Shown: positions 9,091 through 35,346, counted from the first letter of the stretch. The stretch: DNA of 64,000 bases from Flavobacteriales bacterium (GCA_016713865.1 JADJOG010000001.1:2274-66273); one strand, 5' to 3'. Notes: generated by a model not told the origin, from the letters alone. Translations and numbers: made by a program.

Positions 9091-9432
9091 ATGAACACGA
9101 TTTCACGCATACTGATACTGGCTGCATTAGGCATGGCGCCTGCTGCAGCCCTACGTGCGCAGCAAGGCACCATCGGATCGGAGCACCGCTACCAATTCAG
9201 CCTCGCGCAGGCGCCATCGTCCTACAGCGAGAAACTGATGCTCGAGTCCTTCAGCGGCTTGGATCCGGAGATGCGCGTGGACATTGACCGTGGCGAGCGT
9301 TCGCTCAAGATCCTCGCTTATCGCCCGCTCGATCAACAGGAGCTCATCCGCATGGCCGCGAGCCATGGCATTGGCATGCAACCAAGGAATCCGCGTCGGG
9401 ATCCTGATCCAACCTTGATCGGCAATCAATGA
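9091..9432 (+). CDS. Small secreted protein (113 aa). Member A of a three-member paralogous family with a predicted ferredoxin-like/HMA-like βαββαβ core and no CxxC.
   Basis: Signal peptide MNTISRILILAALGMAPAAALRAQ. Its stop (TGA 9430-9432) overlaps the ATG (9429) of the downstream giant gene. It aligns with the proteins at 13062 and 15863, for example KLMLESFSGLDPEMRVDIDRGERSLKILAYRPLDQQELIRMAASHG. Confidence 0.6.
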   Translation: MNTISRILILAALGMAPAAALRAQQGTIGSEHRYQFSLAQAPSSYSEKLMLESFSGLDPEMRVDIDRGERSLKILAYRPLDQQELIRMAASHGIGMQPRNPRRDPDPTLIGNQ

Positions 9433-12400
9433 GCAGCGCCATGAAGAACATCATGAAGCACTTCTTCGCGACACTGACAACGGTTGTGCTTGGCCAAGTG
9501 GCGATGGCGCAGACCGCCACCAACAATTGCGGGTATAACGCGGGCAACGAATACCCTGTGGGCACCTCGTGCAATCTGCTCACCTTCAACAAGACGGATG
9601 CATTCACGGTGAACCTGAATGCCAGTGGATGCAACGCCGGCAACCGGGACGATGCCTGGGGCTGGTTCACAGCGACAGCGAACGTGACGAATCTGACGTA
9701 CGACCCCGCTACTAGCCAACGGCCGATCATGCATGTTTATTCCGGAGCATGTGGCAGCCTAACCCAGGTTGGCTGCGTTGAATGCCGGAAGCAATGGCGC
9801 GAACGCGAACCTGACCATAGCAACGATCCCTGGCCAGAATTACATGGTGCGCATCCAGCTGCATAACAGCGATGCGGCCATGAATGGCTCCTTTTGCGCA
9901 TGGTCGCCATCAGCGCCCGCGAACGACAATCCATGCGGCGCGGTGGGCCTGAGCGTCAGCAACTCCTGCCTCACCACCGCCGCAACCAACCTCGGCGCCA
10001 CCAGCACAGCCGGCGTTCCGGCACCAGGCTGCGGCACCTATGTGACCGGTGATGTCTGGTTCACCTTCGTGGCCCCAGCGAATGGCGCAGCAGCCATTCG
10101 CACTACTGCCGGTGGGCTTACGGATTCAGGCATCGCGCTCTATACCGCGACTGCTTGCGCAGGCACTTTCACCCTAGTGGCTTGCTCGCCGAATGGCAAC
10201 GGCAACATGGGTCAGATCAGCCAAACCGGGCTCACGCCTGGTCAAACCTATTACGTGCGCATATGGGGCGATAGCAATGCAAGTGGCACCTTCAACATCT
10301 GTGTGGTTGGCCTGCCTAACGATGAGCCCTGCGGCGCCACGGCGCTGCCAGTGAATGCCAGCTGCACGAATACCACCAGCACGAGCGCCTTCGCCACCAA
10401 CAGCCAAGGGATTCCTGCCCCGGGCTGCGCCAATTACCAAGGCGGCGACGTTTGGTTCTCCTTCGTTGCGCCAGCGAACGGCACCGTGGTCGTGCAAACC
10501 GGGTCAAGCGGAGGCCTCACCGACACGGGCTTGGCACTCTATGAAGCGACCAATTGCTCCACCGGTTACAACCTGCTTGCATGTAACGACGATGCGACTG
10601 GGCTCGGCTTCTTCAGCCGTATCATAAGCACAGACCTAGTACCAGGAACCACTTACTACGCTCGCGTATGGGGCTACGGCGGCGCAACGGGCGGCTTCAA
10701 CATCTGCGCGCATTCGCCGCCCCCGCCTGCGAACGATGATCCATGCGGCGCCACCGCGCTCACGGTGAATGCGACCTGCACGAATACCGCCACAACGAAT
10801 CTTGGTGCAACAGCTACCCCCAGCATACCGGCCCCCGGATGCGGCAACTACACGGGCGGCGATGTCTGGTTCAGTTTCGTTGCTCCGGCAAGCGGCCGCA
10901 CCTCGATCCAGACCAGTTCCTCTGGAGGCTTGGCCAACACCGCCATCGCGCTTTACAGTGCTACCAACTGCTCATCCGGTTTCGCACTCATCGCATGCGA
11001 CGACGACGCGGTCGGCTTCTTCAGTCTGATTGACCGAGTTGGCCTCACGCCGGGCGCTACCTACTACGTGCGTGCTTGGGGCGTTAGCGGCAGTGCTGGC
11101 ACATTCAACATTTGCGCATATGAACCTGCGATTGCTCCGCCGTCGAACGACGAGCCATGCGGGGCAATCGACATCGCACTAGGTACCAGTTGCACCTTTT
11201 CAGCCCGCACCAATGCAGGGGCATTGCACAGTTCAGGCATTCTATTTTCGGGCTGTGGCAATTATGGGGGCCGCGATGTGTGGTTCCGCTTCGCCGCGCC
11301 GGCAAACGGATTGGCCACCTTCCGCGTGAATACAGGAACCTTGGCGAATCCTGCCATGGCCCTGTACCAGGCCTCCAGCTGCAGCGGACCATTCACACTG
11401 ATCGCTTGCGACAATACCAGTGGCCCCGGCGATGCGCCATTCATGACCCTCACACCGCTCGAGGTCATTCCGGGCGAGACCTACTACCTGCGCGTATGGG
11501 GGCAACAATGGCACCGCTGGAACATTCGATCTCTGCGGATACACCGCGCCCAGCTCCGGCGATTGCATCTACGTGCTACGCATGTGGGACAGCCAAGGAG
11601 ATGGCTGGGGCAACAGCCGGGTGACCATTCAAGTAGGTGCAGGGCCAGCGACGAATTACTGGAACGCCAACGCCGATGAGGATGTCGCGTACATCTCTGT
11701 AAGCGTCGGACAAAGCGTCACGGTTTCCTATGCAACCGGCGGCTCCGGTGGACAGGGCCAGATCCGTTACGCCCTCAATTGATCAATGGGCCGCTTTACA
11801 TGGATGGGCCGACCCTGGCACCGGGCCGCGTTGGGCTGGCACGGCGAATTGCCAGAGTGCTACACCCCTTCCAAGTGATTGCGTTGGCGGTGCTGCGATC
11901 TGCAATGCGCAGCAGATCAGCGCGAACCCTAACAACACGGGCCTCACACAAGACCTGAATCAACTCAGCCGCGGGTGCCTTGGCTCCAATGAGCGCCAAG
12001 GTTACTGGTACCGGTTCACTGTTTCGGGCACCGGCCTGCTCGGTTTCACCATCAGTCCGAATAACGCTGGCGATGACTATGACTTCGGCATCTGGGGCCC
12101 TTACAGTTCAATCACTTGCCCACCGCGTGAAACTCCAGTTCGCTGCAACTACAGCGGTGACCCCGGCGACACAGGGCTTTCTGCCTTGGGCTCAAACCCC
12201 ACCGAGGGTGGCAGTGGGAACAAATGGTCGAGTCGATTGCCTGTGATCGCGGGCGAGAACTACTTCCTCTACGTGAGCAATTTCTCCCAGAGCGGGCTCG
12301 CTTTCGACCTCAGCTGGCAACTCGAGAGCGGCGCTAGCCTCGATTGCACCTTGCTGCCGATCCAACTCCTGAGCCTTAATGGCGCACCCGTGCCCGAAGG

Positions 12401-12905
12401 CATCCGCTTGGACTGGAGCACCGCCACCGAATCGAACTCGGCCGCTTTCGCGATCGAACGCATGAATGAATTCGGCGACTTCGTGCAGATCGGCGAATTG
12501 CCCGCCGCTGGGAACAGCAATAGCCTCATCGAATACCAATTCATCGATTCCCAGCCCATGCAAGGCTTCAACCACTTTCGCTTGAAAATGATCGACGCCG
12601 ATGGCAGCGCCGAGCTCAGCCAAGTGGTCTCCGTGGCCAATCGATATGGCGGTTTCGTCGGCTTATACCCGAACCCGGCAACGGATCACATCAGCATCGT
12701 TATGGATGAGCTCCCCGAAAGCGAGATCATCATCAGGTTCCACGATGCAAGTGGCCGACTGGTGCGCGAAGAGCGGACAATGGTCGCTGAAGGTCAATCA
12801 TTGGTGACGATTCCTTTGCTCGGCCTCGACCCCGGCCACTATGCTCTCTCGTACAGCTTTCAGAACAGCGCCATGCGATATGGCGGCAGGTTCCTCGTGC
12901 AATAG
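9429..12905 (+). CDS. Giant T9SS cargo / cell-surface protein (~1,158 aa as one reading). It has PPC-like Cys-containing β-sandwich repeats, then conserved middle modules, then a Por_Secre_tail (type A C-terminal domain). Reading frame is interrupted by three +1 shifts near 9778, 11498-11502 and 11770-11790.
   Basis: The ORF-track pieces 9429-9866, 9769-11679, 11573-11782 and 11730-12905 are contiguous by paralogy with the intact neighbouring genes. There are 4-5 ~115-aa repeats of the form 'ANDxPCGA..L.VN..C.NT..TN.GAT....P.PGCG.Y.GGDVWFSFVAP..G......GGLTD..ALY.A..C.G.F.L.AC.DD...GTFNIC'. The C-terminus ends 'LYPNPATDHISIV...'. The shift at 11498 is an extra G in a GGGGG run. Confidence 0.7.
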
Positions 12906-12923
12906 TTGTTGTTCGCGTGTTCA

Positions 12924-12954
12924 GAACAAGGCCGGGCTCAACCCGGCCTTGTTC
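12924..12954 (+). terminator. Perfect 13-bp stem / 5-nt loop hairpin after giant gene 1.
   Basis: GAACAAGGCCGGG CTCAA CCCGGCCTTGTTC, followed by GTTCATG. Confidence 0.55.
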
Positions 12955-13061
12955 GTTCATGCCCGGACCTATTGCATTGCCCTTTGCGGCAAAGGTTTAC
13001 CTTCGTCATGCTGGACAACCAGCACCGGTTCCCTTCGTCATACTTGAAACCCGAGGTTGGA

Positions 13062-13481
13062 ATGATGAGACTGTTTACCCTTTGTGCCTCTGCCATCTGC
13101 GCATTTCTGATCGCGAACTCAGCCCACGGACAGGGCGCTACCATCCATCTGCTGCAATGTGACGCGGTGATTGATGGCGCCCATGGCAAGCTAGCCGCGG
13201 AAGTCGTCAAGAACCTGGATCCACAAGCCCTGATCAGCTGGGATGGGCAATTGATGAAGATCAGGCTGAATAGCGGGATCGAGCAGCAGGAATTGCTCCG
13301 CGCCTTGAATCAAGGTGCAGCGCGATTCGCGATCCTCGGTGGCGACCCGCGTTCAGGCATGCCTGTTCGGATCGATACCGGCGACCCTTCGGGCGACGAC
13401 CTCCGCTATGAGCAGGCCAAGGCTGCATGGCTGAACCAGCAGCAGTCATTGGTCCAACCCGTTTCACCGGCAAAGGAGTGA
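13062..13481 (+). CDS. Small secreted protein (139 aa), member B of the ferredoxin/HMA-like family.
   Basis: MMRLFTLCASAICAFLIANSAHGQ signal peptide. The core 'KLAAEVVKNLDPQALISWDGQLMKIRLNSGIEQQELLRALNQGAARFAIL' aligns with members A and C. It ends 5 nt before the ATG of the next giant gene. The ORF-track start (12906) was trimmed to the signal-peptide Met. Confidence 0.6.
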   Translation: MMRLFTLCASAICAFLIANSAHGQGATIHLLQCDAVIDGAHGKLAAEVVKNLDPQALISWDGQLMKIRLNSGIEQQELLRALNQGAARFAILGGDPRSGMPVRIDTGDPSGDDLRYEQAKAAWLNQQQSLVQPVSPAKE

Positions 13482-13485
13482 TCCC

Positions 13486-15702
13486 ATGAAACGCCACCTC
13501 CTCATTCCTTGCTTCGTCCTTTGGGGAGCGTTCACGGCTCTGGGCCAATGCCCTGATAACAATACCGTGATCGCAGGTGGCGCTATAACGCCCAGTTGTC
13601 CCGGTACCACTAACGTGCCTTGTGTGCAAGGCGGTCAATACGCCTTGGTGAATGTGACCGCTGGTTATCAGTACACGTTCGCGACATGCGGCGCCTCGTT
13701 CGATACCCAGATCACGCTTTACAACAACACCGGCGGAGGCAGTTTGGGCTACAACGACGATAGCGGCACCTGCGGCTTCCTGAGCACGCAGTCGTACATC
13801 GCTTGGACTGCCGGATTCACAGGACAATTGCGCGTGCTGGTTGACCTGTACAACTGCGCGTCGAATGCGGTGTGCGCGCCGCTGACGATCACGTGCACCG
13901 TGCCTCCACCTCCGGTCACGAATGGCACGCCTTGCGCCAACCTGCCTCAAGCACTCGTGCTTTCGTGCGGTGGCGGCACCTTCAGCAATGTGGGTGGCGG
14001 GAACTCCGGCATCGCGCCCGCGCCTACTTGCGGCAATTACATCGGGGGGACACAGGATGTCTGGTTCTCTTTCGTTGCCGGACCGTATGGCCAAGTGAAT
14101 CTCTCGAGCACCGCAGGAACCATGACCGATGGCGCCATGGCGGTTTATAGTGCCCCCTCCTGCTCCGGCCCATTCACTCAAGTGGCTTGCGACGATGACG
14201 GTGGTCCTGGGTTGATGCCGCAGCTCAACCTGAACGGACTCAACCCCGGCCAGACCTATTTCGTGCGCTTCTGGGGCTATGGAACAGCCACGGGAACCTT
14301 TAACCTCTGCGTGCAAGGCGTTAGCACCGTGCCACCCGGTGGCTGCGTGTACATGCTCAACCTCTACGACGGTTTCGGCGATGGTTGGGGCAGCAGCAAT
14401 GTGGGCGTCAGCATCAATGGTGGCCCATTCACTTATTACACGGTCAGCGGCACATCGAACAGCGTGGCGATACCGGCCACCGCAGGAACCCTGATCGTGC
14501 TCACCTATAACAACTCCGGACCGTTCCAAGGCGAGAACTCCTACACGCTCACATTGGGACCTGGATCAGTATTCAGTTCCGGCAGCCCTCCTACGGCCGG
14601 CACCAGCTACGCAGGAACGCTCACCTGCAACCCGCCTCCCGCGCCGCCCGAGGATTGCATCGGCAGCATCACGATCTGCAATGCGCAGAGCTTCAACAAC
14701 AACACGAATAACACAGGGAATGTCGCTGACCTGAATGCGACCTCAGCTGGTTGCTTAACGACTACGGAACGCCAAGGCACCTGGTACAACTTCACCGTGA
14801 GTGCTAGCGGACAGATCGGATTCTCCATCAACCCTGCGAACCCCGCCGACGATTACGACTTCGCCATCTGGGGGCCATTCCCGCCGGGAAGCACGCCAGG
14901 TAGCATCTGCCCGCCGCTATCCGCGCCATTGCGCTGTTCCTATTCATTGCTTGGCGGGGCCACAGGGCTCAATTTCGCTGCAACGGATTTAACCGAACCT
15001 CCTTCGGGAGATAAATGGGTGCGCTACCTCGATGTGGTGGTCGGTCAGGTGTACCTGCTCTACATCAGTAATTTCTCGCAGAGCGGCTTGTCCTTCGCGC
15101 TCGATTGGAACCTGCAGGGAGGCGCATCGCTCGATTGCACCGTGCTAGGAGCTGACCGGTTAGCGCTGGATGCGCATGAAGAGAATGATGTTGTCGCTGT
15201 CGAATGGTCAAGCGCATCAACGGATGGCACCCACATGTACATGATCGAGCGCTTCGAGCCGGAGCATGGTTTCGTGGACATCGGTCAAGCGCTCGCGTTG
15301 CGCGATGCGCAAGGAGCCGTGAGCTATCGGCACATTGATCAAGAACCGCTTGTCGGATTGAATCGCTACCGCTTGAGGATGGTGGATGCGCATGGTTCGA
15401 GTGCGGTGAGCCATGAGGTCGTCGTGGCTCGATTCAAGCTCGATCAAGGCCCGCGGATCTCGCCGAATCCCGCTGCGGGCCTGGCCTGGATCCATTTCCA
15501 TGCACCGATGCAAGGAGCCGCTACCTACCAATTGCTCAACGCCGACGGAAGAACACTGGCCGAAGGCCTGATTCCAGTGAACGAAGGCGCTAACCGATTC
15601 GCGCTCCCGTTGATCAGCGTCGGTGAAGGCTGCTATACCCTGCGTTTGAAACTGCCCGGCGGTGAATGCCAGCACGCGCGATTAGTCGTGAGCGGTTCAT
15701 AA
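13486..15702 (+). CDS. Giant T9SS cargo protein (738 aa, intact): N-terminal Cys-rich PPC-like domains, a 'DGFGDGWGSS' β-sandwich module, the 4-Cys 'DCIG..CNAQ...DYDFAIWGPF...CPP...LRC' module, an Ig/FN3-like domain and a Por_Secre_tail.
   Basis: Signal peptide MKRHLLIPCFVLWGAFTALGQ. The C-terminus 'ISPNPAAGLAWIHFHAP...' is a type-A C-terminal domain. Modules were defined by alignment with giants 1, 3 and 4. Confidence 0.75.
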   Translation: MKRHLLIPCFVLWGAFTALGQCPDNNTVIAGGAITPSCPGTTNVPCVQGGQYALVNVTAGYQYTFATCGASFDTQITLYNNTGGGSLGYNDDSGTCGFLSTQSYIAWTAGFTGQLRVLVDLYNCASNAVCAPLTITCTVPPPPVTNGTPCANLPQALVLSCGGGTFSNVGGGNSGIAPAPTCGNYIGGTQDVWFSFVAGPYGQVNLSSTAGTMTDGAMAVYSAPSCSGPFTQVACDDDGGPGLMPQLNLNGLNPGQTYFVRFWGYGTATGTFNLCVQGVSTVPPGGCVYMLNLYDGFGDGWGSSNVGVSINGGPFTYYTVSGTSNSVAIPATAGTLIVLTYNNSGPFQGENSYTLTLGPGSVFSSGSPPTAGTSYAGTLTCNPPPAPPEDCIGSITICNAQSFNNNTNNTGNVADLNATSAGCLTTTERQGTWYNFTVSASGQIGFSINPANPADDYDFAIWGPFPPGSTPGSICPPLSAPLRCSYSLLGGATGLNFAATDLTEPPSGDKWVRYLDVVVGQVYLLYISNFSQSGLSFALDWNLQGGASLDCTVLGADRLALDAHEENDVVAVEWSSASTDGTHMYMIERFEPEHGFVDIGQALALRDAQGAVSYRHIDQEPLVGLNRYRLRMVDAHGSSAVSHEVVVARFKLDQGPRISPNPAAGLAWIHFHAPMQGAATYQLLNADGRTLAEGLIPVNEGANRFALPLISVGEGCYTLRLKLPGGECQHARLVVSGS

Positions 15703-15862
15703 CGTCTGCTTGGCTTTGAGGCAACCATGACTGCTTGCCTCGTCTCCTCTTCATCCTGAGAACCATTGCATGCCTATGGCCGTTGCAGGTGACGCCTTGG
15801 ACCGCAGCCTTTTGAACCCGCTTGGAACCCAAGCTTATATTAGCCCCAAACACCACTTTCAG

Positions 15863-16306
15863 ATGACCCGCAGATTCCTGATGCTCAGCGTTTTAGCGGC
15901 ATTCGCCGGAGCTGTGAGCGCCCAGAGCGCCCCATTCTACTTCTACCAGGCCGAGGAAGCCATCAATCGGAGCCAATTGAAGTTGATGATCTCGGCGGTG
16001 ATGGATGTGGACCCCCAAGCGGACGTGTTCCACTCGGACGACATGACCATCATCCAAGTGAAAGCGGCGAGCAATCTGCCCGCCGAAACCTACCGTGAAG
16101 CCTTGGTTAATGCTGGTGTTCGTCTGCGTGCCGGCATGCTCTCTCCGGAACAAGTGCACGCAGCGAACGCGGTTGAAGCACCGCCCATTTTCATAGCAAC
16201 GGGCGATGCGGCTGGCGATTTGGCCCGCTACCAACAAGCGGTGCAGGCTTGGAATGCCAACCACCCTGACAATCAGCTCTCTCCCACTCCGGTCCACCTC
16301 CGTTGA
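15863..16306 (+). CDS. Small secreted protein (147 aa), member C of the ferredoxin/HMA-like family.
   Basis: MTRRFLMLSVLAAFAGAVSAQ signal peptide. The core 'KLMISAVMDVDPQADVFHSDDMTIIQVKAASNLPAETYREALVNAGVRL' aligns with members A and B. It ends 17 nt before the ATG (16324) of giant gene 3. Confidence 0.6.
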   Translation: MTRRFLMLSVLAAFAGAVSAQSAPFYFYQAEEAINRSQLKLMISAVMDVDPQADVFHSDDMTIIQVKAASNLPAETYREALVNAGVRLRAGMLSPEQVHAANAVEAPPIFIATGDAAGDLARYQQAVQAWNANHPDNQLSPTPVHLR

Positions 16307-16323
16307 ACCCTAGCGTGCAGCGC

Positions 16324-19300
16324 ATGAAGCAGCACTACCTTTCTCTAGCTCTTGCATTGTCTTTGGTTGGCGCGTCGGGCGTGGCGCATGGCCAATGCGT
16401 CTCGGGCACCGGCACAACCATGATTGCCCCTGCCGGGCAAACCCCGGAGCCCCAGCAATTCACGGCCGGGGCAATCACCGCAGGGGTAGCCAACATCACA
16501 ATCATAGCACCGACAACTGGGACTGTCGGATTGGTGAACGGCATGGTGATCAGTGGACCTCCGGGTCTGTTTGCCCCAGGTACGGTGCTCACTGGTAAAC
16601 GCGACGACAATTTCTGTGGCCCCACCACCTCTGCTTACTGTTGGTGCCGGATCGATTGTCTGGTTCAATAACTGGAATGCAGCCACGGTGCCGCCGAGTA
16701 CAAACACACGCGAGTGTGAACTTCCCGCCCCCACTTGGAGGCACCCCGTCAGCAATCAACTGCACCGTCTGTCCGGCTACTTTCAGCGCGACTGTGTGCG
16801 CAGGGCAATACTTCGACTACTACATGTGCACCGGGAACAACTACACGTTCTCGATGTGCGGCAGCCCGAACTGGAACTCCACGATCACGATAACCTCCAC
16901 TGCTGGCGCTGCGACCACGAACGGTTTCCCAACCTACGACGATGATGGCTGCGGTGCAATCGGCGGGCACGCGGTGCTCAACTTCATCCCCACCACCACG
17001 GGTATCTTCCGTGTTCGCCTCTTCAACAATCCATGTACTGTGAATGGCGGGCTATGCGGCACACTGAACATCCAATGCAGCCCTAACCCTGTTCCACCGG
17101 CTAACGATGAACCTTGGAACGCGCAAGTGCTACCCGTGAGCACCGTGTGCAATTTCGTTCCAGCCTCGAATGCGTTCTCGACCGGCTCTAGCGGTCCAGT
17201 ATCGCCTCTTACTCCAGTGAACTGCTTAGCCAATTGTGTTGCCGGCTCGGGCAACTATGGTGGTGCAGATGTTTGGTTCGCTGCCAACGCAAGCCCGACT
17301 GGAACCTTGAGCGTACAGACCAACTTGGTGAGCGCGCAGAACCTGGCCATGGCGGTTTACACCGGAACCCCGGGTGTTTCGCTGAACCAAGTAGGTGGCC
17401 CCGGCTATTGCAATTCGTGCAACGACGACAGTGCGCCCACCTTACTGAACCCCTTCTTGCAGATGAGCGGTTTCGCGCCCAACCAGACCGTCTACATCCG
17501 TGTATGGTCCAATTCGGGCTTGATAAACAGCGGCTCTTTCCAAATCTGCGCCTACCACCCGGTGCCGCCACCGAACGATGATCCCTGCTTCGCCATCAAC
17601 CTGCCCATCAATACCAGTTGCAACCTCACTTCGTTCACCACCGAGAGCGCGCTGCCGTTGAGCGTGGCCATGACGACTAGCCCGGCTTTACCCACCTGCG
17701 GCACTCCCGTAGCCGGTGGCGATGTCTGGTTCACGACCACGGTTCCTGCTGGTCAATCGGTTACGATCAACACCCAGCAAGGCTCACTGACGGATATGGC
17801 CATGGCCATTTACACGCTGACCGCAGGAACGATTTGCGCGGGCACCTTGACCTAAGGCCTCTGCAACGACAACCTGACGGTGACTAACCTGATGCCCAGC
17901 GTCACCTTGCCAATCTCCGGAAGCCCGGTCACCTATTACATCCGATTGTGGAACAAGACTGCGGCATTCGGTACCGCGAGCATCTGCGTGGTGCTGAATA
18001 CGCCACCAGCGAACGACGATCCTTGTGGCGCCATTCCGTTGCCGGTTAACCTCGGCTGCGTGTTCCCATCTCCGTTCTCCACACAGTTCGCGACAACCAC
18101 AGGTACTCCATCACTTCCTCCTAGGGGTGACATCGATCGTGAACACGAATACCGGGTTATGCTCACCGGCCCTCTTCAATCCGGCTTCCCTACACGAGCG
18201 ATGTCTGGTTCACCGCGGTTGTGCCAGGGAGCGGCTCGCTCTCCTTCGATACGGATGATCTTCAGTTGAACGATGCGGCCTTCGCCGTTTACACCACGGG
18301 TGGCACAACCTGCCCCAACCTCGTGCTCACACGCGTGGCTACAAGCTGCTCCAGCGGTGGAAGCTTGAACGGCGGCAACATGCCTGTAACGAATGTGACC
18401 GGCCTGACCCCAGGGACAACGGTATACATCCGCGTTTGGCGCGATAACGCCGGAGCGAATGATGGCACTTTCGTCATCTGCGCCAGGAACCCGCAAACAC
18501 CAAGCGGTTGCTGGTACACCTTACGCTTGACCGATAGCGCTGGCGACGGCTGGAACGGCGGTTTCGTGACCTTGTGCATCAACGGTTCCTGCACCAACTA
18601 CACGGTGTATGGTTCACTATCCACCGTGGTGTTCACGGCGAACGTGGGCGATCTGGTCACCCTGTCCTACACCGCTGTCGGCGGATTCCAGAACCAAGTC
18701 TCGTGGACGCTCTCTGCCAGCACTGGCGCCAACATCTGGCCGGGCCCGATATCGAACCCGCCATCGTCAGGACCGCAGCATTCCATGACGGTGAACGCTG
18801 CGTGCAACGTGCCACCGGCGCCTATCTCCGATTGCATCGGGCACCAGGTGGTCTGCAATAACCAGAACATCAGCTACAACCCTTCGAATACGGGCAACGT
18901 GGTTGACTTGACGTCCACCAATGACGGTTGCTTGGCCGGTGAGCAGCAGGGCGCTTGGTTCGTTTTCACCACGAATGCCGCTGGAAACATCGCCTTCACC
19001 TTGAATGTGGCCGTTGGCACCGACTACGACTTCGCGGTCTGGGGACCCTTCGCGCCGGGCGCACCTCCCTGTCCGCCACCCGGAGCGCCCATCCGTTGCA
19101 ACTGGTCGGCTACCACCGGGCCAACCGGCTTGAGCCTCTCGAGCTTCACGCCATCCGTTGGTGCTGTAGGCTCACCGTTCTCGCAATGGATCACCGCTGG
19201 CGCCAACGAGATGTACATCCTCTACGTGGACAACTGGTCGAGGAATGGCATCTCCTTCAGCCTGACCTGGCAGAACACGCCTACCAACATCCTCGATTGC

Positions 19301-19846
19301 GTGCTGCCGGTTGAACTGGTCGAGTTCGATGCCTACGGCACCGGTGCTGTTGCGCAGTTGAAATGGACCACTGCCAGCGAGGAGAACCTCTCGCACTTCG
19401 TGATCGAGCGCTCGGCCGACGGTACGCGCTTCGATGCCCTGAACCAGGTGCAAGCCGCTGGCGAGCGCTCTTTGGTAACCCGTTACGAGACCATCGATCA
19501 ATCTCCGATGCGTGGCGTGAACCACTACCGCTTGCGCATGGTCGATGACGATGGCTCGGTGCAGCACAGCAAGGTGATTCCGGTGCGCTTCGGATGGTCG
19601 CCCGCCAGTGTGCAGGTGTTCCCCAACCCGGCTGGCTCCAGCCTGTGGGTGGCGGCGCACGATGTGGACGAGGGCTGGCAATGGCGCATCCTGGACGCGA
19701 GCGGCCGCATGGTGCGCGCTGGTCGTGCTATGGCCGAGAGCGCCCAATTCGAGATCCCGCTCACCATTGAATCCGGCGCGTACGTGCTGGAAGTGCTCGA
19801 CCAGAACGGCGCCACCATGGGCCAAGCCCGCTTCGTGAAGGACTAG
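16324..19846 (+). pseudogene. Giant T9SS cargo gene 3, disrupted in this sequence: a -1 shift near 16640-16670, an in-frame TAA at 17856-17858, and a -1 shift near 18180-18260. It has the same architecture as giants 1, 2 and 4 and an intact Por_Secre_tail.
   Basis: The ORF-track pieces 16303-16671, 16641-17855, 17880-18269 and 18221-19846 are all paralogous to adjacent genes. The C-terminus is '...VFPNPAGSSLWVAAHDV...ARFVKD'. Given errors elsewhere in the window, the lesions may be sequencing artefacts. Confidence 0.55.
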
Positions 19847-19877
19847 CAGGCCCGAATCGTTCATAACCCCGTTGATT

Positions 19878-19910
19878 CTGCGGCGGTTGAGTTAACCTCA
19901 ACCGCCGCAG
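19878..19910 (+). terminator. Strong intrinsic terminator (14-bp perfect stem, 5-nt loop, then a T-run).
   Basis: CTGCGGCGGTTGAG TTAAC CTCAACCGCCGCAG TTCTTTACATT, located 30 nt after the stop of giant gene 3. Confidence 0.7.
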
Positions 19911-20032
19911 TTCTTTACATTCGCCTCCTTCGGGGATTATGCGCTCCGCAGTGAACGAAACCAACTGCCCGAGCGTCTAGTGCGCGTGATCAGCAACAGG
20001 CGATTTGAATGATGAGCAAAACGGAACACACC

Positions 20033-23000
20033 ATGAAGCGCCTTCTCACCCTGCTCTGCATCGCAGCAGCTCTCTCCCTCCCGCGTGCTTCACAGGCGCA
20101 GTTGCCATGCACTGGCGTAGGGATGGGGGCAACCACGATAGTCAACAATGCAGCTTGGACGGCGAACGTGGTGCCGCCCAACATGACCATCACCCGGGCA
20201 TGCAACATCACGAACGGACTTACGGCAATTGCTATCGGCACGTGTAATGCAGCATTGAACGGAGCAGTGGTTTCAGGACCCGGGATTCAACCGGGCACAA
20301 CGCTGAGCGGTGCTTGCGGAGCTAGTACGTTGAGCTTGCCCGCCACAGCCACGTTATCAGCGGTTACGCTGACCTTCACCTTGCCGGGTTACGTAAGCAA
20401 CTTCCCTCCCCAGACCACTGGTACTCCGAGCCCACTGCACTGCTCGGTATGCCCTTCCCTCTTCACCACGAATATCTGCACCAACCAATATGCTTCACTG
20501 TACATGTGTGCTGGCAACGTGTACACGATCAGTTTATGCTCCAGCGGTTCAGCGTGGAACTCAACCTTGAGTATTACTTCGAACAACGCTTCCACATTCG
20601 CGGCAACAACGGGTGGTTACGTCACCTCGAACGACGATGGCTGCAGCCCAAGTGGTCATGCCGAATTGGTCTTCGTTCCAACCGCCACGAACATCTACTT
20701 CGTTCGTGTCTTCTCGAATGTGGCGGGCAACCCATGCGTGTCCAACCCGCCGCTGAATTGCGGAACGCTCACCGTTACGTGCTCACCGGCACCACCAGCC
20801 CCTGCGAACGATAACCCATGCGGTGCCACACCGTTAACGGTGAACAGCGCATGCACCACCATCGGCAGCACCACGTCTTGGGCAACTGGCACAGGCACAC
20901 CCGGCAATCCAGGCTGTGGCTCATATGCAGGCTTCGATGTTTGGTTCAGCGCTGTTGTGCCAGCGAGCGGTCGTTTGTCCTTGCAGACCTTCAATGCAGG
21001 CGCCACTGACTTGGCAATGGCCGTTTACACAGCCCCAGCATGCAACGAGCCTGTTGCAGGGAATTGGACGCTTCGTGCCTGCAATGCGGATATCGCACCA
21101 GGCTTCACGCAGCCCTATGTATTCCTGAACAACATCGCGCTGGCCGGACAAACGGTTTACATCCGGGTGTGGCCGCAGTCCATTGCCGGTAACGGTGGCA
21201 CCTTCGAGATCTGCGCATTCGAGCCTGTGGCGCCTGCGAACGACAATTGCGGGGCCTTCCCTGTTGCGGTTACAGCGGGCTGCACTCCCGTCGTGGGCAC
21301 CAACTTGGGTGCTACGCCTTCGGGATTGGCCTTGCCTGCATGCTGGGGCTCACCCTCTTCGGTGAACGACATCTGGTACACGGTGCAGGTTCCCGTGGGC
21401 GCTGGGGTGAACATCGCCTTGAACAGCCTTGGCCTCACCGACCTGGCCGTGCAAGCCTATTTGGGTGTATGCGGCACGCTGACACCGATCGCTGCGGCAT
21501 GCTCCGACCCCGCATTCCCAGCGCAACCAACCCTACAGATCCTGCAGAACGGGACCACCATCGTCGATAACACGATCATCTACGTGCGGGTGATCCACCG
21601 CAACGACTACTTCGACAACTTCACCATCTGCGCGACACCGGCGCTGCCACCAGCGAACAACGAGCCGTGCGGCGCGCTGGACCTCCCTTTGAATTATGGC
21701 TGCGTGTGGCTCGGTGGCACCAACACGCAAGCGACCAACACGGCTGTCTCTCTCGGAGGGCAGCATAGCAATGTGCCTGCGCCTGCGGCACCGTGCGCCG
21801 GAACCGCCACCAACGACGTGTGGTACACGATCAACGTGCCTTCGCTCCCGGCTGGAACCAACGTGGTACTCGATACCTACGCCGGCTCATTGTCGAATGC
21901 CGCAATGGCCGTTTACACAGGCACTGGTCTCTGCACAGGCACCTTGGCGCTCACGCAGGTCGGTTGCGCAACGCAGAACGTGACCACGGGCTCCGCGATG
22001 CCGATCCTCACGCTCACCTCGGGCACGCAGTTCCCTGCGCTTACGGCAACAACGCTGTATGTGCGTGTCTGGCGCGAAGGCGGCCCCGATGGAACCTTCC
22101 AGATCTGCGCACGGCGCACCGATCCGCCTCCCGGCAATTGCTTCTTCACGCTGCGCATGATTGATTCAGCCGGCGATGGCTGGAACGGGAGCTTCGTGAC
22201 GGTATGCGTTGGCGCTGCATGCACCAACTACACGCTCACAGCAGCGACCAGCACCATCAACATCCCCGCGAACATCGGCCAGATCGTCTCTTGGGGCTAT
22301 ACCGCAGCCGGCGGCTTCCAGAACCAGAACAGCTTCCAGATCCTCGCGCAGAACGGCGGCGTGCTTTATACCAGCGGCAGCCCTCCCACCGTGGGCAATC
22401 CGCTGGGCGCCTTCACGGTGAATGCCACCTGCAATGTGCCTCCCGCGCCACAGGAGGATTGCATTGGAGCCGTGAACGTGTGCTCCAATACCGCACAGAG
22501 CGCCAATCCGCAGAATACCGGCGGTGTTGTTGACTTGAACCTGAGCAACCGTGGATGCCTGATCACGAACGAACGTCGTGGGGTATGGTACACCTTCCAG
22601 ATCACGCAGCCCGGTCAATTGGGATTCACCATCAATCCTTTCCCCTACGGCATTTCGGATTACGATTACGGCCTGTGGGGCCCTTACTCGTCCATCACGT
22701 GTCCGCCCACAGGTCCGCCGCTGCGCTGCTCTTGGGCCGATGGACCTTCGCTAACAGGATTGAATTGGGTGGCTACCGATTTCAGCGAAGGCGTGGCTGG
22801 CGATAGCTGGACCCAGTACATCAACGTGGCTGTGGGCCAGTTCTACATCCTGTACGTCGACAACTGGTACATGACCGGTTTCGCGTTCGATCTCAACTTC
22901 ACTTATCAGCCGAACTGCGGGGTGGGCGCCAATCCGCCTTGCGCGTCCATCGATTGCTCCTTGCTCCCAGTGGAGTTCATCGACCTGTGGGCACGCCCGA

Positions 23001-23515
23001 TCGGCACCGCGATCAATGTGGAATGGAGCACCGCCAGCGAACGCGGAAGCTCGCACTTCATGGTGCAGCGCTCATTGGATGGCACCAACTACGAGACCAT
23101 CGGCCGCCAAGAGGCTGCGGGGCAATCGGATGGGCGCCGCAACTACAGCTTCATTGATCCCAAGCCGCATAAGGGCTTGCAGTACTACCGCATCGAGCAA
23201 TTCGACAGCGATGGGCGATCGAGCTATTCGGCTTCCGTTCCTGCGTACATGGGCGCCGATGGCTCCAAGCTCACGGTATTCCCGAACCCGGCCCGCGACG
23301 AGGTGAACCTCAATTTCGAAACGGAGATGGAGGGCAACGTGCATTGGTTCATCAGCGATGGTTCTGGGCGCACGGTGCGCTCGGGCAACCTGAGCACCGA
23401 TGCAGGCTCGCAAACCACCACCATCGGGCTTAGCGGCTTGGACGGCGGAGCGTACACCATATCCATGATGCACGCCGACCGCAGTGTGAGCCGGGCCCGC
23501 TTCGTGAAGCAGTGA
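20033..23515 (+). CDS. Giant T9SS cargo protein (about 1,160 aa, intact): PPC-like repeats ×4-5, a 'DSAGDGWNGSF' module, the 4-Cys module, Ig/FN3-like domains and a Por_Secre_tail.
   Basis: Signal peptide MKRLLTLLCIAAALSLPRASQAQ. Repeats of the form 'PANDNPCGA.PL.VN..C...GT...AT...P...CG....DVW[FY]...VP.G'. The C-terminus 'LTVFPNPARDEVNLNFE...ARFVKQ'. The ORF track starts 24 nt earlier at MMSKTEHT. Confidence 0.75.
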   Translation: MKRLLTLLCIAAALSLPRASQAQLPCTGVGMGATTIVNNAAWTANVVPPNMTITRACNITNGLTAIAIGTCNAALNGAVVSGPGIQPGTTLSGACGASTLSLPATATLSAVTLTFTLPGYVSNFPPQTTGTPSPLHCSVCPSLFTTNICTNQYASLYMCAGNVYTISLCSSGSAWNSTLSITSNNASTFAATTGGYVTSNDDGCSPSGHAELVFVPTATNIYFVRVFSNVAGNPCVSNPPLNCGTLTVTCSPAPPAPANDNPCGATPLTVNSACTTIGSTTSWATGTGTPGNPGCGSYAGFDVWFSAVVPASGRLSLQTFNAGATDLAMAVYTAPACNEPVAGNWTLRACNADIAPGFTQPYVFLNNIALAGQTVYIRVWPQSIAGNGGTFEICAFEPVAPANDNCGAFPVAVTAGCTPVVGTNLGATPSGLALPACWGSPSSVNDIWYTVQVPVGAGVNIALNSLGLTDLAVQAYLGVCGTLTPIAAACSDPAFPAQPTLQILQNGTTIVDNTIIYVRVIHRNDYFDNFTICATPALPPANNEPCGALDLPLNYGCVWLGGTNTQATNTAVSLGGQHSNVPAPAAPCAGTATNDVWYTINVPSLPAGTNVVLDTYAGSLSNAAMAVYTGTGLCTGTLALTQVGCATQNVTTGSAMPILTLTSGTQFPALTATTLYVRVWREGGPDGTFQICARRTDPPPGNCFFTLRMIDSAGDGWNGSFVTVCVGAACTNYTLTAATSTINIPANIGQIVSWGYTAAGGFQNQNSFQILAQNGGVLYTSGSPPTVGNPLGAFTVNATCNVPPAPQEDCIGAVNVCSNTAQSANPQNTGGVVDLNLSNRGCLITNERRGVWYTFQITQPGQLGFTINPFPYGISDYDYGLWGPYSSITCPPTGPPLRCSWADGPSLTGLNWVATDFSEGVAGDSWTQYINVAVGQFYILYVDNWYMTGFAFDLNFTYQPNCGVGANPPCASIDCSLLPVEFIDLWARPIGTAINVEWSTASERGSSHFMVQRSLDGTNYETIGRQEAAGQSDGRRNYSFIDPKPHKGLQYYRIEQFDSDGRSSYSASVPAYMGADGSKLTVFPNPARDEVNLNFETEMEGNVHWFISDGSGRTVRSGNLSTDAGSQTTTIGLSGLDGGAYTISMMHADRSVSRARFVKQ

Positions 23516-30937: not shown

Positions 30938-31686
30938 CGCGAAAGCTCCATGCACAGCGCGCTGGCAGCAGCAGCCACATTCAATGATTCGGCGCCGCCG
31001 AACCGCGGAACCGCGAGCTCTGAAGCGCCTAATGCGCGAACGGCTTCCGAAGGCCCATGCGATTCACTGCCCATGATCAGCACGCATGGACGTGCGACCT
31101 GCACGTCGAAAATGCTGCGCCCTTCCATGGTAGCCAGGTAGAGCGACGCACCATCAGCGCGCAGCCGATCGAGTTCATCGGGCAACTCAGCCCTGCGAAG
31201 CGCTACACGGAACAAGGAGCCCATGCTCGCTTGAACGCACTTCGGGTTGAACTCCTCCACGCAATCGGCGCTGAGGATCACGCGAGCGATACCGAACCAA
31301 TCGGCGATGCGCAGCAGTGTGCCCAGGTTGCCAGGATCCGCGATACCATCGAGCGCGAGCACGGTGTCGGCAGACCGTAGTGGCCTGTATGGCCCTGGTG
31401 CGGGTATGCGCGCGACAGCGATCACATCGTTAGCGCTTTCCATCGTGCCCATGCGCTCCAGGTCATGGGAAGGATGCACCTGCACCAGCTCCATCGGATA
31501 CCGTGATGCATGAACCGCGCTCGCATGGATGCTCAGCACCGGCCATCCGGCATCGAGCAGTTCCTGCACCACCTTGGGGCCTTGTGCGAGGAACAATCCT
31601 TGCCCTTGCCGTTGCTTCTTCTGCTGCAGCGCCCGCACGGCGCGCCAATCGGGAATGGTGCTCAACGCTCGGATATATTTGGCCAT
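30919..31686 (-). CDS. TrmH/SpoU-family RNA 2'-O-methyltransferase, 255 aa.
   Basis: MAKYIRALSTIPDWRAVRAL...; 'LDGIADPGNLGTLLRIADWFG' and 'GSESHG...ESLNVAAAASA' are SPOUT motifs. The start was trimmed from the ORF-track 31731. Confidence 0.75.
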   Translation of the reverse strand: MAKYIRALSTIPDWRAVRALQQKKQRQGQGLFLAQGPKVVQELLDAGWPVLSIHASAVHASRYPMELVQVHPSHDLERMGTMESANDVIAVARIPAPGPYRPLRSADTVLALDGIADPGNLGTLLRIADWFGIARVILSADCVEEFNPKCVQASMGSLFRVALRRAELPDELDRLRADGASLYLATMEGRSIFDVQVARPCVLIMGSESHGPSEAVRALGASELAVPRFGGAESLNVAAAASALCMELSRQARTA

Positions 31687-31708
31687 GCCTGCGCGACGCG
31701 CGGCCAGC

Positions 31709-34205
31709 ATGCCGCGCAAAGTAGGAAGCACATACGCTCACTTGAGGAAAGCGGCACATCACATCGGAGCAGCTCTGCTCGTCTTGGCAACGCTCTCCGG
31801 CTGCGATGCCACCAAGCGGCTCACCAGCGATGAAGTGCTCCTGAAATCGAACCGGCTCGTGATCGATTCCCGCGAGGTGAGTCGCGATGAGTTGATGGCG
31901 ATCGTGAAGCAAGTGCCCAATCGAAGGGTCTTGGGCATCCCCTTTTACCTGCACATGCATAACCTGCCCAATCCGGCCCGGATACCCGAGTGGCGGGCCA
32001 AGAAGAATGCGCGCAAGGACCGTCGGAACGAAAAGCGCGCGCTGCGCGGCAAAGCCCCTAAGCCATACTCACCAACCCGCGCCGAGTGGCTGCGTGAGAA
32101 TGTGGGTGAAGCGCCTGCGGTGCTCGACAGCAGCCTGACCGAACGCTCGATCGATCAGATGCGCCTTTACATGACGAAAGAGGGCTGGTTCCATGCCGAG
32201 GTGAGCGCTGCCGTGACTTTGAAAGAACGGGCCTGGTTCGGGGGCGGCTGCATCGGCCGGAAGGCCGTTGTGACCTACACCGTGCGATCGGGCGCGCCGT
32301 ACCGATTCAGGAATATCACGTCCAGAATCGACGATGAACAGATCGTTGCCCTGCTGAAGGCGAACGAGGGCAAGAGCTTCTTGAGAACGGGCGACCGCTT
32401 CGATGATGATGCCTTGGAGCAAGAACGCGCCCGCATCACCTCGCTCCTGCGCGACGACGGCTTCCTATACTTCACCAAGGACCTGATCTATTTCGTCGCG
32501 GATACCAGCGTGGGCAGCCATCAGGTTGACCTCTCGGTGCGCATGGGCCGGCAACAAGGCGCAGGGCAGCGCGGCATCACGGGCACGCCAGAGGCCCGCA
32601 GGTATCACCTGGGCGAAGTGACAATCGCAACGTTCCGACAGCAACGCGGCAGCAGCCTCCTGCGTGCCGATACCATTGTCGCCGAAGGCTATCGCTTCAT
32701 TCACCCGGGCCGACCGCTATACCGCCCAAAGCCCTTGGGGCATCCCGTGTTCCTGAATACCGGCGAATTGTACCGCCAACGGAACGCCGACCGCACCTAT
32801 CGAAGGCTCACATCGCTTGGCGTGTTCGAGCGTGTGGATATCGCTTACGATACGACCAGGCGCGCAGGAGAAGGAGTCGCGGATACACGGATCGCACTGC
32901 TGCCCGGCAAGCATCAAGGCTTCTCCGTCGAGGGCTTCCTGACCAATCGCGGTGGTGCGCTGGGCAGCTCGGTGAACTTGGGGTACAAGCACAAGAACCT
33001 GTTCCGATCCCTCGCCTCGCTCCAAATCGGACTCAGTGTCGGCCTTGAGGCGCAACAGCGCATCGCAGGCGCGGAGCAGAGCACCTCCCAGAGCGCAGTG
33101 CTCGGCGACGGCTCGGTGTTCAATACGGTCAGCCTCGGGCCCGAGCTCACATTCGGCTTCCCGATCTATTGGCGGCTATTCAGCAAATCGAGCAACGCGC
33201 GCCTGCTGCTGAACGGACTGTACAACTACCAGCGACGGCCCGATTTCACACGGAACCTGGGCCGTCTTTCCGTGGGCACGCAATGGCAGGAGACCCGGTC
33301 CAACACGTGGGGCTTCTTCCTGGAGGGCAACGTCGTTCGGCTACCTCGTGTAACCGAGGCCTTCGAGCGCTACCTGGCCGCCAGCAACAATCCGGTGCTA
33401 CGCGACAGTTACACCGACCACTTGATAACCAGCGCGCGCGTCACGCGAACGCATGCCACCCCGGACGGCGAGAAGCAACGCAATTCATTCTTTGCCCGAA
33501 CCACCTTGGAGTGGGCCGGACCCTTCCTGCAGGCATTCGGGGCAGCGGTAGAGGACAGCTCGGGGCAGCGGTTCAACACAGTGGCAGGCATACGCTACGC
33601 GGAATACGTAAAGGTGGATGCCGATTTGCGATGGCGCCACACCCTGCACGAGCGCAGTAGCTTGGCTTTCCGCGCGGCCGGTGGCGCCGGACTCCCCTAT
33701 GGGAATCTGGGCGTTCTTCCATTCGAGAGCAGCTTCTTCGTTGGTGGCGCGAATGGCCTGCGCGCGTGGCGGGCACGATCCATCGGACCGGGCTCCTACA
33801 GTGCTCCCCTGACAGCCTTCGACCGGATCGGAGAGATCCGGATCGAGGGGAATGCGGAATACCGATTCAGGCTCATCGGCTTCCTGGAAGGCGCGCTCTT
33901 CGCCGATGTGGGCAACATCTGGAACTTCAAAGACCAGAAAGGTATGCCTGGCGGTGCGATATCAGAGCGCTTCCTCAGTGAGTTGGCTGTTGGCGCAGGA
34001 GCCGGAGCAAGATTGAACTTCGACTTCTTCATCGTTCGTTTCGATCTTGGGCCTGCAGACGAAGGATCCTTCGTTGCCTCCCGGCGAGCGCTGGTTATTC
34101 CAGCCGAAGGACAGGTACGAGAGTTCAATGAGCGACCTCACCGGGCAAAAAGTCCGCTACACGCCCGAGCTGAATTTCAACCTCGGGATCGGCTACCCGT
34201 TCTAG
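31709..34205 (+). CDS. BamA/TamA-family (Omp85) outer-membrane protein, about 830 aa, with a lipobox-type signal. There is a frameshift near 34040-34110.
   Basis: [34 protein letters not shown]..., POTRA-like regions, and a long β-barrel. The canonical Omp85 terminus '...[16 protein letters not shown]' is found in the +1 frame and ends at 34205. The ORF-track frame runs on to 34294. Confidence 0.7.
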
Positions 34206-34245
34206 GTGCTCTGTTCGGCCCATGGTGCCGCACATGCCGGTGGCC

Positions 34246-34253
34246 TACCTTCG
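34246..34253 (+). promoter_or_regulatory. Candidate -7 box TACCTTCG upstream of fbaB.
   Basis: TAnnTT[T/C]G motif. It lies 37 nt before the ATG at 34291, or 22 nt before the alternative ATG at 34276. Confidence 0.3.
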
Positions 34254-34290
34254 CCGACCTGAAAATCGAGCACGCATGCCAACGCTTACC

Positions 34291-35346
34291 ATGAGCAAGA
34301 TCGAAGAGCTCCTCGGCGCCGACGCCCCAAGCCTCCTGAACCACCAGAGCAAGACCATCGAAAAAGGCAGCCTCAACCTGCCCGGCCCCGATTTCGTGGA
34401 CCGCTGCTTCGTCGCAAGCAACCGCAGCCCGCAAGTGCTCCGCAGCATACAGGCACTTTATGGGAGCGGACGCTTGGCCAACACAGGCTACATGAGCATC
34501 CTGCCGGTTGATCAGGGTATCGAGCACAGCGCTGCCGCGAGCTTCGCACCCAACCCCATCTATTTCGACGGCGAGAACATCGTGAAGCTCGCGATCGAAG
34601 GCGGTTGCAATGCCGTGGCCAGCACCTACGGCGTGCTTGGAAGCGTGGCGCGCAAATACGCCCACAAGATTCCTTTCATCGTGAAGATCAACCACAACGA
34701 GCTGATGACCTATCCCAACAAGTTCGACCAGGTGCTCTTCGGCACGGTGGAGAGCGCGTGGGACATGGGCGCTGTGGCCGTGGGCGCAACAATCTATTTC
34801 GGCAGCGAGGAGAGCACCCGCCAGATCACCGAGATCGCCAATGCATTCCAGCTCGCGCACGAGCTCGGCATGGCCACCATCCTCTGGTGCTATATGCGCA
34901 ACCCCGGCTTCAAGAAGGATGGCGTGGATTACCACACCGCCGCCGACCTCACCGGCCAGGCCAACCACTTGGGCGTCACCATCCAGGCCGACATCATCAA
35001 GCAGAAGCTGCCCGAAGTGAACGGCGGCTACAACGCGCTGAGCGGTTACGGCAAGACGCACAAGAAGGTGTACAGCGACCTCAGCAGCGAGCACCCCATC
35101 GACCTGTGCCGATACCAAGTGGCCAACTGCTACATGGGCCGCATCGGCCTGATCAACAGCGGCGGTGCCAGCAGCGGCGCCAGCGACATGGCCGAGGCCG
35201 TGAAGACCGCCGTGATCAACAAGCGCGCAGGCGGACAAGGCCTCATCAGTGGTCGCAAGGCATTCCAGCGCCCTATGGGTGAGGGCGTGCAGTTGCTCAA
35301 CGCGATCCAAGACGTTTACTTGGATCAAAAGGTCACCATCGCATAG
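34291..35346 (+). CDS. fbaB: Class I fructose-bisphosphate aldolase (DhnA/FbaB type), 351 aa.
   Basis: Near-collinear with E. coli FbaB from memory: [19 protein letters not shown]...[28 protein letters not shown]...VKINHNE...[22 protein letters not shown]. Confidence 0.85.

Follow-up and report, generated by a model that had tools for sequence, protein, structure and literature searches.

Two unnamed modules in tandem surface-protein paralogs of a Flavobacteriales bacterium: a candidate relative of the PPC/GBD jelly rolls and a small beta-sandwich

Introduction

A stretch of 64,000 nucleotides from a Flavobacteriales bacterium (GCA_016713865.1 JADJOG010000001.1:2274-66273; G+C approximately 61%), referred to here as the window, carries at positions 9429-23515 a coding region whose middle part raises the question of which domains it is built from and what these domains do. 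An earlier note on this DNA described two conserved modules in the region, termed module (i) and module (ii), neither of which it could place in a known family. The reading favored here, with a probability of roughly 0.55, is that the region encodes four tandem surface-protein paralogs that are cargo of the type IX secretion system (T9SS), in which module (ii) would be a jelly roll of the PPC/GBD type, module (i) an autonomous sandwich, and the pair a putative ligand-binding unit.

Results

Both modules occur in four adjacent genes

Scanning with hidden Markov models (HMMs) derived from the modules finds each module exactly four times in the 64 kb, always on the + strand and within 9429-23515, with E-values of approximately 1e-68 for module (ii) and 1e-33 for module (i), which is far past chance. 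The region had been taken as one giant protein, but the open reading frame (ORF) map and the three-frame translation resolve it into four tandem paralogous genes of approximately 740-1170 residues on the + strand, designated g1 to g4. The HMM matches, the alignments and the Pfam results bear out the described order, in which the modules of all four paralogs lie between the PPC/GBD_T9SS_assoc repeats and an FN3-like region followed by the Por_Secre_tail domain, and module (i) directly adjoins module (ii) in all four genes. The quoted motifs D..GDGW, DCIG, GCL, DYDFA.WGP, CPP...P.RC and Y.LYV.N are likewise all found.

Module (ii) occupies, as delimited by alignment, 11853-12353 in g1 (HMM match 11862-12350, E 4.9e-69), 14629-15144 in g2 (14632-15144, E 5.7e-72) and 18806-19306 in g3 (18809-19303, E 6.3e-69), as well as 22433-22963 in g4 (HMM match 22436-22960), and the copies are 44-47% identical over approximately 170 residues with 46 invariant columns. 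The copies of module (i), which are 37-50% identical, are located by alignment at 14332-14628 in g2 (HMM match 14335-14634, E 5.5e-36) and 18497-18805 in g3 (18500-18805, E 9.7e-33) and are further found at 22124-22432 in g4 (HMM match 22130-22429) and 11555-11852 in g1, where the HMM match is partial (11555-11776, E 1.9e-23) and the rest is legible in the other two frames.

The Pfam and NCBIfam families recognized in g1 to g4 are the PF23759/PF04151 repeats on the N-terminal side and Por_Secre_tail/TIGR04183 on the C-terminal side, with nothing between them. No Pfam-A or NCBIfam family matches module (ii), either in the whole window proteins at E<=1 or in 16 members at E<=10, where GBD_T9SS_assoc (E 0.031) and PPC (E 0.49) each appear as a hint in one member. 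For module (i), scans of 32 members at E<=10 reveal no recurring Pfam family, and no NCBIfam model matches in the window proteins. The profile of module (ii) finds no match among the PDB sequences, and that of module (i) finds nothing meaningful there. Because no Pfam-A or NCBIfam family matches either module, their description as unplaced was not overturned by a clean match to PKD, HYR or a domain of unknown function (DUF), and only scattered single matches at E>0.002 are seen. That description holds with respect to named families and PDB sequence relatives; it does not hold at the superfamily level for module (ii), which Foldseek, hhalign and its cysteines place, with moderate support, among the PPC-type domains.

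Module (ii) resembles the PPC/GBD jelly rolls in predicted fold and, weakly, in sequence

The AlphaFold2 model of module (ii), calculated for the g4 copy (medc25a2b2db5), has a predicted local distance difference test (pLDDT) score of 83.3 and a predicted template modelling (pTM) score of 0.84, and its comparison by Foldseek identifies a jelly roll of the PPC/collagen-binding type. The top PDB folds are the collagen-binding domains of ColH and ColG (3jqw, 1nqj, 1nqd, 2o8o and 4hpk), with template modelling (TM) scores of 0.62-0.72 on the target, a probability of 1.0 and E-values from 2.5e-3 to 3e-2, and these are followed by the cleaved-adhesin domains of Kgp and the C-terminal jelly rolls of the proteases Tk-SP and KP-43.

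Alignment of module (ii) by hhalign with the GBD_T9SS_assoc repeats of the same proteins gives a probability of 68% (E 4.9e-5), where 90-95% is the usual level of confidence. The repeat of this comparison with 275 versus 344 sequences gives 63% (E 7.2e-5) over 96 columns, which span the core GC...WY.F...D.D.A.W...C...C...Y.LYV. Module (ii) had been described as a four-cysteine module, but the alignments reveal six conserved cysteines, C10, C17, C42, C90, C99 and C175 (residue numbers of module (ii) follow the g4 module). Their columns (10, 17, 42, 90, 99 and 175) share a common order with the six cysteine columns of the GBD repeats (5, 16, 39, 81, 90 and 130), and the spacing between the fourth and fifth cysteines is 9 residues in both. 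C10 and C90 are lost together in all five cases of five, which points to a C10-C90 disulfide.

The motif DYDFA-WGP, which had been singled out as invariant, is indeed present in all copies. In the hhalign alignment, DYDFAVWGP pairs with "TDxAMAVY" of the GBD repeats, and on inspection the motif looks like the DxDLyLy strand of PPC-type domains, as we take the PPC consensus to read, rather than a new signature. In addition to the cysteines, E47, W52, D76, D78 and R98 are nearly invariant among 276 sequences, as are T108 and G109.

These observations offer moderate support, from sequence and model, for the view that module (ii) belongs to the PPC/GBD jelly-roll superfamily and has diverged and grown within it. 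The closest relative of module (ii) would be GBD_T9SS_assoc (PF23759, "galactose binding domain-like"), which occurs in the same proteins and the same secretion context, has the six cysteines in the same order and begins with a similar motif, (N/E)D.C.GA; the suggestive hhalign match between the two runs across the core GC...W(Y/F).F...D..(A)..(Y/W)...C...C...Y..V. In contrast to GBD_T9SS_assoc, module (ii) is approximately 40 residues longer owing to an insertion (TGL...SEG..G..W) after the RC strand, carries its own near-invariant E47, W52, R98, T108 and G109, and is present as a single copy in each protein, either at a fixed position or as the head at the N-terminus. The Pfam models do not recognize it: at its gathering score of 27 bits PF23759 detects the repeats ahead of the modules (E 8e-28 in g1) and misses module (ii), and PF04151 at its gathering score of 25.9 bits matches none of the four copies in the window. 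The best structural neighbors of the model are PPC (PF04151) and the Clostridium histolyticum ColG and ColH domains (1nqd, 1nqj, 2o8o and 3jqw), from which module (ii) differs in its low identity (approximately 10-12%), the lack of an upstream peptidase, its richness in disulfides, and its extra N-terminal Cys-rich region and insertion. A secreted peptidase domain ahead of the module, the setting in which PPC is expected, is not found in the window proteins or in 10 relatives. The cleaved-adhesin domains of Porphyromonas gingivalis Kgp/HagA (3m1h, 3km5 and 4itc), which are T9SS cargo jelly rolls with an adhesin role, rank second, sixth and ninth in the Foldseek comparison; however, their TM scores to module (ii) are only 0.31-0.39 with root-mean-square deviations (rmsd) of 9-12 A, and sequence similarity and a Pfam match are lacking. 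The likeness is a functional analogy for a binding domain on T9SS-displayed proteins.

It is rather unlikely that both modules are instead new families with no kinship to described domains and that the likeness of module (ii) to PPC/GBD reflects convergence of beta-sandwiches. Neither module has a match in Pfam, NCBIfam or the PDB sequences, the Foldseek E-value against the PDB never falls below 1e-3 for either of them, and module (i) has no PDB neighbor with a TM score above 0.45 on the query. Furthermore, the cluster names of 10 relatives are all "hypothetical protein" or blank, and searches of the literature for the module motifs (GDGW type and DYDFA), for PF23759/GBD_T9SS_assoc and for T9SS cargo with PPC returned nothing relevant. 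Against convergence in module (ii), the hhalign match to the neighboring repeats recurs whether few or many sequences are aligned and extends over the full core, the six cysteines keep the order of those in the GBD repeats, and the best PDB folds are consistently of the PPC type with a probability of 1.0. For module (i), an unrelated new family is still plausible.

Module (ii) defines a very large family

The size of the module (ii) family was taken from an exhaustive hmmsearch of 1.84 billion cluster representatives (clusters at 50% identity), because a word-indexed protein search returned only 22 matches for module (ii) and 4 for module (i), all of 310 residues or fewer; the same word-indexed search with a 32-sequence profile of module (i) gave no match. 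The exhaustive search finds 5,446 representatives at E<=1e-3, of which 3,009 remain at E<=1e-10 and 590 at E<=1e-30. A pattern scan of the GTDB species genomes with the four-copy alignment yields 248 confirmed matches to module (ii), and the best 80 of these are nearly all from metagenome-assembled genomes (MAGs) of Flavobacteriales. The nearest relatives of the window proteins, at loci L001 and L002, are 86-90% identical at the protein level, and at the DNA level the best-matching loci compared (L001, L023 and others) are approximately 75-78% identical.

A tail of 150-215 residues follows module (ii) in 119 of the 166 best relatives, and this tail corresponds to an FN3-like region plus a sorting domain. 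In two relatives (P0001 and P0002), module (ii) is the sole domain between the signal peptide and the sorting domain, and in three others (P0145, of 2253 residues, P0135 and P0096) it serves as the N-terminal head domain of large, PKD-containing CHU_C type B cargo. Module (ii) is considered an autonomous unit because it stands alone and as an N-terminal head in such other cargo.

Taken with the fold comparison, these results lend moderate support to placing module (ii) in a known jelly-roll superfamily, as a very large subfamily that has no name, and the models suggest that module (i) is an unnamed small beta-sandwich for which no solved relative was found. What the locus exposes is a gap in annotation, together with a hypothesis on binding that can be tested; it is not a system of a categorically new kind and leaves present understanding intact. 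The family of module (ii), with at least 5,446 clusters at 50% identity, is invisible to current Pfam and NCBIfam, the members checked are all labeled hypothetical, and it sits in T9SS cargo of Flavobacteriales that are known here nearly only from MAGs. Naming module (ii) as a member of the PPC/GBD clan, together with naming module (i), would improve the annotation of thousands of surface proteins and would provide a defined target for binding studies on the attachment of uncultured bacteria to particles, polymers and cells.

Module (i) is a small beta-sandwich with a conserved D..GDGW loop

The AlphaFold2 model of module (i), also calculated for the g4 copy (mcfc64b42200c), has a pLDDT of 94.2 and a pTM of 0.85 and consists of 8 beta strands, which form a beta-sandwich of approximately 100 residues with a D..GDGW loop. 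The first and last conserved positions are cysteines that are kept in at least 96% of 163 sequences, and one cysteine pair probably ties the ends of the module together; D14, G19, W20 and Y59 are essentially invariant. In the Foldseek comparison with the PDB, the model matches only generic C2/PLAT-like sandwiches (E>=0.016, TM<=0.45 on the query), and the 50 best matches include neither a P-domain nor a CUB structure. Kinship of module (i) with the GBD repeats or with module (ii) was considered and rejected, with an hhalign probability below 1%.

A vague likeness of module (i) to the P-domain of proprotein convertases had been proposed in the earlier note. The two are alike in being small, all-beta and located after other domains in secreted proteins; however, a match to the Pfam family P_proprotein is absent from 32 members scanned at E<=10, no furin, kexin or subtilisin P-domain is recovered by the PDB profile search or ranks within the 50 best Foldseek matches, and the proteins have no subtilase or other protease domain upstream, so the proposal does not find support.

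A further alternative, which appears unlikely, is that module (i) is a degenerate, shortened CUB-type domain (PF00431). CUB is a beta-sandwich of similar size that is present in the same architectures (as in P0027, P0030 and P0145), in 29 of the 166 relatives and often just upstream of module (i), and alignment by hhalign of 162 module (i) sequences with 81 CUB domains of homologous proteins gives a probability of 58% (E 1e-4). This match is partial, with only 44 of approximately 101 columns aligned, and it is not backed by a Pfam CUB match in the 32 members at E<=10 or by a CUB structure among the top 50 Foldseek matches. In addition, nothing in CUB corresponds to the D..GDGW strand-loop. CUB domains, which are unusual in bacteria, are missing from the four genes of the window; in many relatives, such as P0027, P0030, P0032, P0040, P0060, P0067 and P0145, one to several of them stand just before module (i) or module (ii).

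In all 51 proteins that bear both modules, module (i) directly adjoins module (ii). Among the predicted structures in BFVD, it fits parts of four "uncultured virus/phage" proteins well, the best being A0A8D9FS04 (TM 0.86, rmsd 1.9 A, 28% identity), and the annotation of these four names a T9SS sorting domain in one and a putative peptidase in another. A tblastn search of phage records gives one match, LR745206.1 ("uncultured phage", 634,780 bp), in which the ORF at approximately 578811-582428 (L076:5128-8745) encodes a typical T9SS type B cargo protein of Bacteroidota with the order signal peptide, Reelin_subrepeat-B-like domain, module (i), repeats, PKD and CHU_C. Because this ORF lacks module (ii), module (i) also exists without module (ii), and P0025 is a further protein with module (i) but not module (ii). 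Several of the BFVD "uncultured virus" proteins that match module (i) also bear T9SS sorting domains; such phage-labeled T9SS cargo may be encoded by huge phages or may be bacterial sequence in viral bins.

Discussion

A putative ligand-binding unit on T9SS-exported proteins

According to the favored reading, the four paralogs would be beads-on-a-string surface proteins that are exported by the T9SS and built only from beta-sandwich modules, each with a signal peptide, a head, one to four PPC/GBD_T9SS_assoc repeats, module (i), module (ii), an FN3-like domain and a type A sorting domain. Module (ii) would stem from the same superfamily as the upstream repeats and would have retained the six-Cys framework and the strand that we take to be "DxDLyLy" (here DYDFAVWGP), while gaining an N-terminal Cys-rich extension, the insertion of approximately 40 residues (TGL...SEG..G..W) and the polar set E47, D76, D78 and R98. 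By analogy with collagen-binding, CBM-like (carbohydrate-binding module) and cleaved-adhesin jelly rolls, module (ii) may be the domain that binds. Module (i) may serve as an accessory or a spacer, and the two together would act as an adhesin or lectin-like ligand-binding unit, either on the cell surface or released. Both modules are autonomous, conserved and probably disulfide-braced. The most likely role would be ligand binding or adhesion on surface proteins displayed by the T9SS, and the proposal that module (ii) is a disulfide-stabilized, possibly lectin-like binding domain fits both the predicted fold and the context.

Several points weigh against this reading. The hhalign probability between module (ii) and PPC/GBD stays below 70%, the best Foldseek E-value is 2.5e-3, and the TM score on the query is 0.4-0.5, which is low because approximately one third of the module lies outside the matched core. 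The Pfam models of PPC and GBD_T9SS_assoc remain below threshold on every member of module (ii) scanned. The E/D/D/R set could equally serve catalysis or Ca2+ binding, and both where the conserved residues lie in the models and how the cysteines pair are inferred. Module (i) lacks a convincing solved relative, and its accessory role is a guess from its position. Finally, two of the four genes are disrupted.

A small secreted ORF upstream and the possibility of an effector

A small ORF on the + strand precedes three of the four genes, at 9091-9432 before g1, 13056-13481 before g2 and 15860-16306 before g3, where it overlaps the start of g3 by 4 nt; there is none before g4. Its product of approximately 140-150 residues starts with a signal peptide and bears the motif PVxVxTGDxxxDxARYxxAxxxW towards the C-terminus; in the truncated copy ahead of g1, the TGD...RY...W part at the C-terminal end is missing. 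Pfam gives no match for the small ORF, and a weak profile match links it to the HMA-fold copper chaperone ScAtx1 (E 2e-4), although a CxxC motif is lacking. An HMM built from the three window copies finds a total of 93 copies across the window together with 75 related loci, and for 82 of these the next gene downstream, in the same orientation, is one with module (ii). Examples from the related loci are L023:5224-5781, L016:4347-4853 and L031:7233-7685. Conversely, of the 118 module (ii) genes whose upstream region is covered sufficiently, 74 are preceded by the small ORF or fused to it, and fusions to the cargo are found in P0043 and L031:4186.

The conservation of the small ORF next to module (ii) genes is what suggests a cassette of cargo and periplasmic partner, and the conserved upstream partner gene yields a concrete, testable hypothesis on cargo handling. 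That the small protein is a periplasmic chaperone, inhibitor or immunity partner in a two-component cassette with a cargo in which module (ii) is an active effector, enzymatic or antagonistic, instead of a passive binding module, is quite improbable; if true, it would represent a new class of T9SS effector-partner pair, expanded as diverged tandem arrays in uncultured Flavobacteriales. Very improbable, too, is the related explanation in which module (ii) is the enzymatic or toxic domain of a T9SS effector with the small upstream protein as its chaperone, inhibitor or immunity partner. The near invariance of E47, W52, D76, D78 and R98 would suit an active site, no other catalytic domain is present in the module (ii) proteins, of which module (ii) can be the sole domain, the weak ferredoxin-like/HMA match of the small ORF is to the fold class of protease pro-domains, and the pairs of small ORF and cargo form tandem, diverged arrays. 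However, the fold of module (ii) is that of a binding jelly roll and not of a known enzyme or toxin, the conserved acidic residues lie on the PPC-type motif, which is taken as structural, the small ORF is missing before g4 and before approximately one third of the relatives, and no link in sequence or fold to toxin, immunity or peptidase families was found. Pfam and NCBIfam likewise reveal no enzymatic, catalytic or peptidase domain in the window proteins or in 10 relatives.

Organization of the four genes

The window proteins are predicted to be T9SS type A cargo from the combination of a sorting domain above a curated cut-off with a signal peptide. Por_Secre_tail (PF18962, Pfam cut-off 27) is passed by g4 (33.8 bits) and g1 (29.7 bits), and TIGR04183 (cut-off 23) by g3 (24.6 bits) and g4 (26.4 bits), with g2 under the cut-off at 18.7; signal-peptide-like N-termini can be read off the translations of the window genes. 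Neither module is found by HMM scan in the other large ORFs of the window (50063-53887, 55174-58560, 58748-63982 and 31529-34294).

Two genes are intact in the ORF list. The gene g2 (13486-15702, + strand, 738 residues) encodes a signal peptide, an unnamed Cys-rich head, one GBD repeat (13921-14322), modules (i) and (ii), an FN3-like region and a sorting domain; in the Pfam and NCBIfam scan, GBD_T9SS_assoc scores 27 bits and the Por_Secre_tail match is weak. Public assemblies hold no record of the exact g2 sequence. The gene g4 (20009-23515, + strand, 1168 residues) encodes a signal peptide, an unnamed N-terminal region, three GBD repeats (20807-22120), modules (i) and (ii), an FN3-like region and Por_Secre_tail (residues 1090-1161), and GBD_T9SS_assoc scores 28.5 bits. 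The other two are disrupted paralogs, as read from three-frame translation and, for g1, from tblastn with the intact relatives P0037 and P0039. The T9SS type A cargo gene g1 (9429-12905, + strand) has a head domain, four GBD_T9SS_assoc/PPC repeats (9922-11508), modules (i) and (ii), an FN3-like region and a sorting domain, and PPC matches with an E-value of 7.5e-12. The intact relative of g3 (16303-19846, + strand), P0034, has 1228 residues.

At least four frame changes are present in g1, near 9776, 11501, 11776 and approximately 11814, and the last two split module (i) itself. In g3, frame changes occur near 16590, 16710 and 18110-18160, and an in-frame TAA is located at 17853, where P0034 has Gln. 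A G5 homopolymer at approximately 11498 hosts one of the g1 frame changes, and the contig names (tig...) of some of the closest-relative MAGs are presumably of long-read assembly style, so that some of the disruptions may be consensus errors. Either g1 and g3 are true pseudogenes, or their disruptions are consensus errors that affect only the paralogous repeats. It is highly improbable that the array is decaying and that the modules have no present function in this genome, since at least 8 disruptions in approximately 7 kb of g1 and g3, against approximately 55 kb of other long window ORFs that are intact, and the truncated partner ORF of g1 are offset by the intact g2 and g4, by intact counterparts of g3 elsewhere (P0034 and L023), by the strong conservation of both modules in thousands of proteins and by the possible consensus errors.

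In addition to its frame changes, g3 appears to lack approximately 75 residues within its N-terminal region, as judged from 16702-16719 against residues 122-197 of P0034. The Cys-rich head of g2 (residues 21-137; 13546-13896) is a third unnamed domain, which also occurs in P0005, P0027, P0033, P0047, P0063 and P0066; its pattern is QCPxNN...YTFSTCG..FDTQITLYNN.GG.LGYNDD...LRVLVD.Y.C, which has no Pfam match and is PPC-like by eye. The heads of g1 (9429-9920) and g4 (20009-20806) are also unnamed and differ from that of g2.

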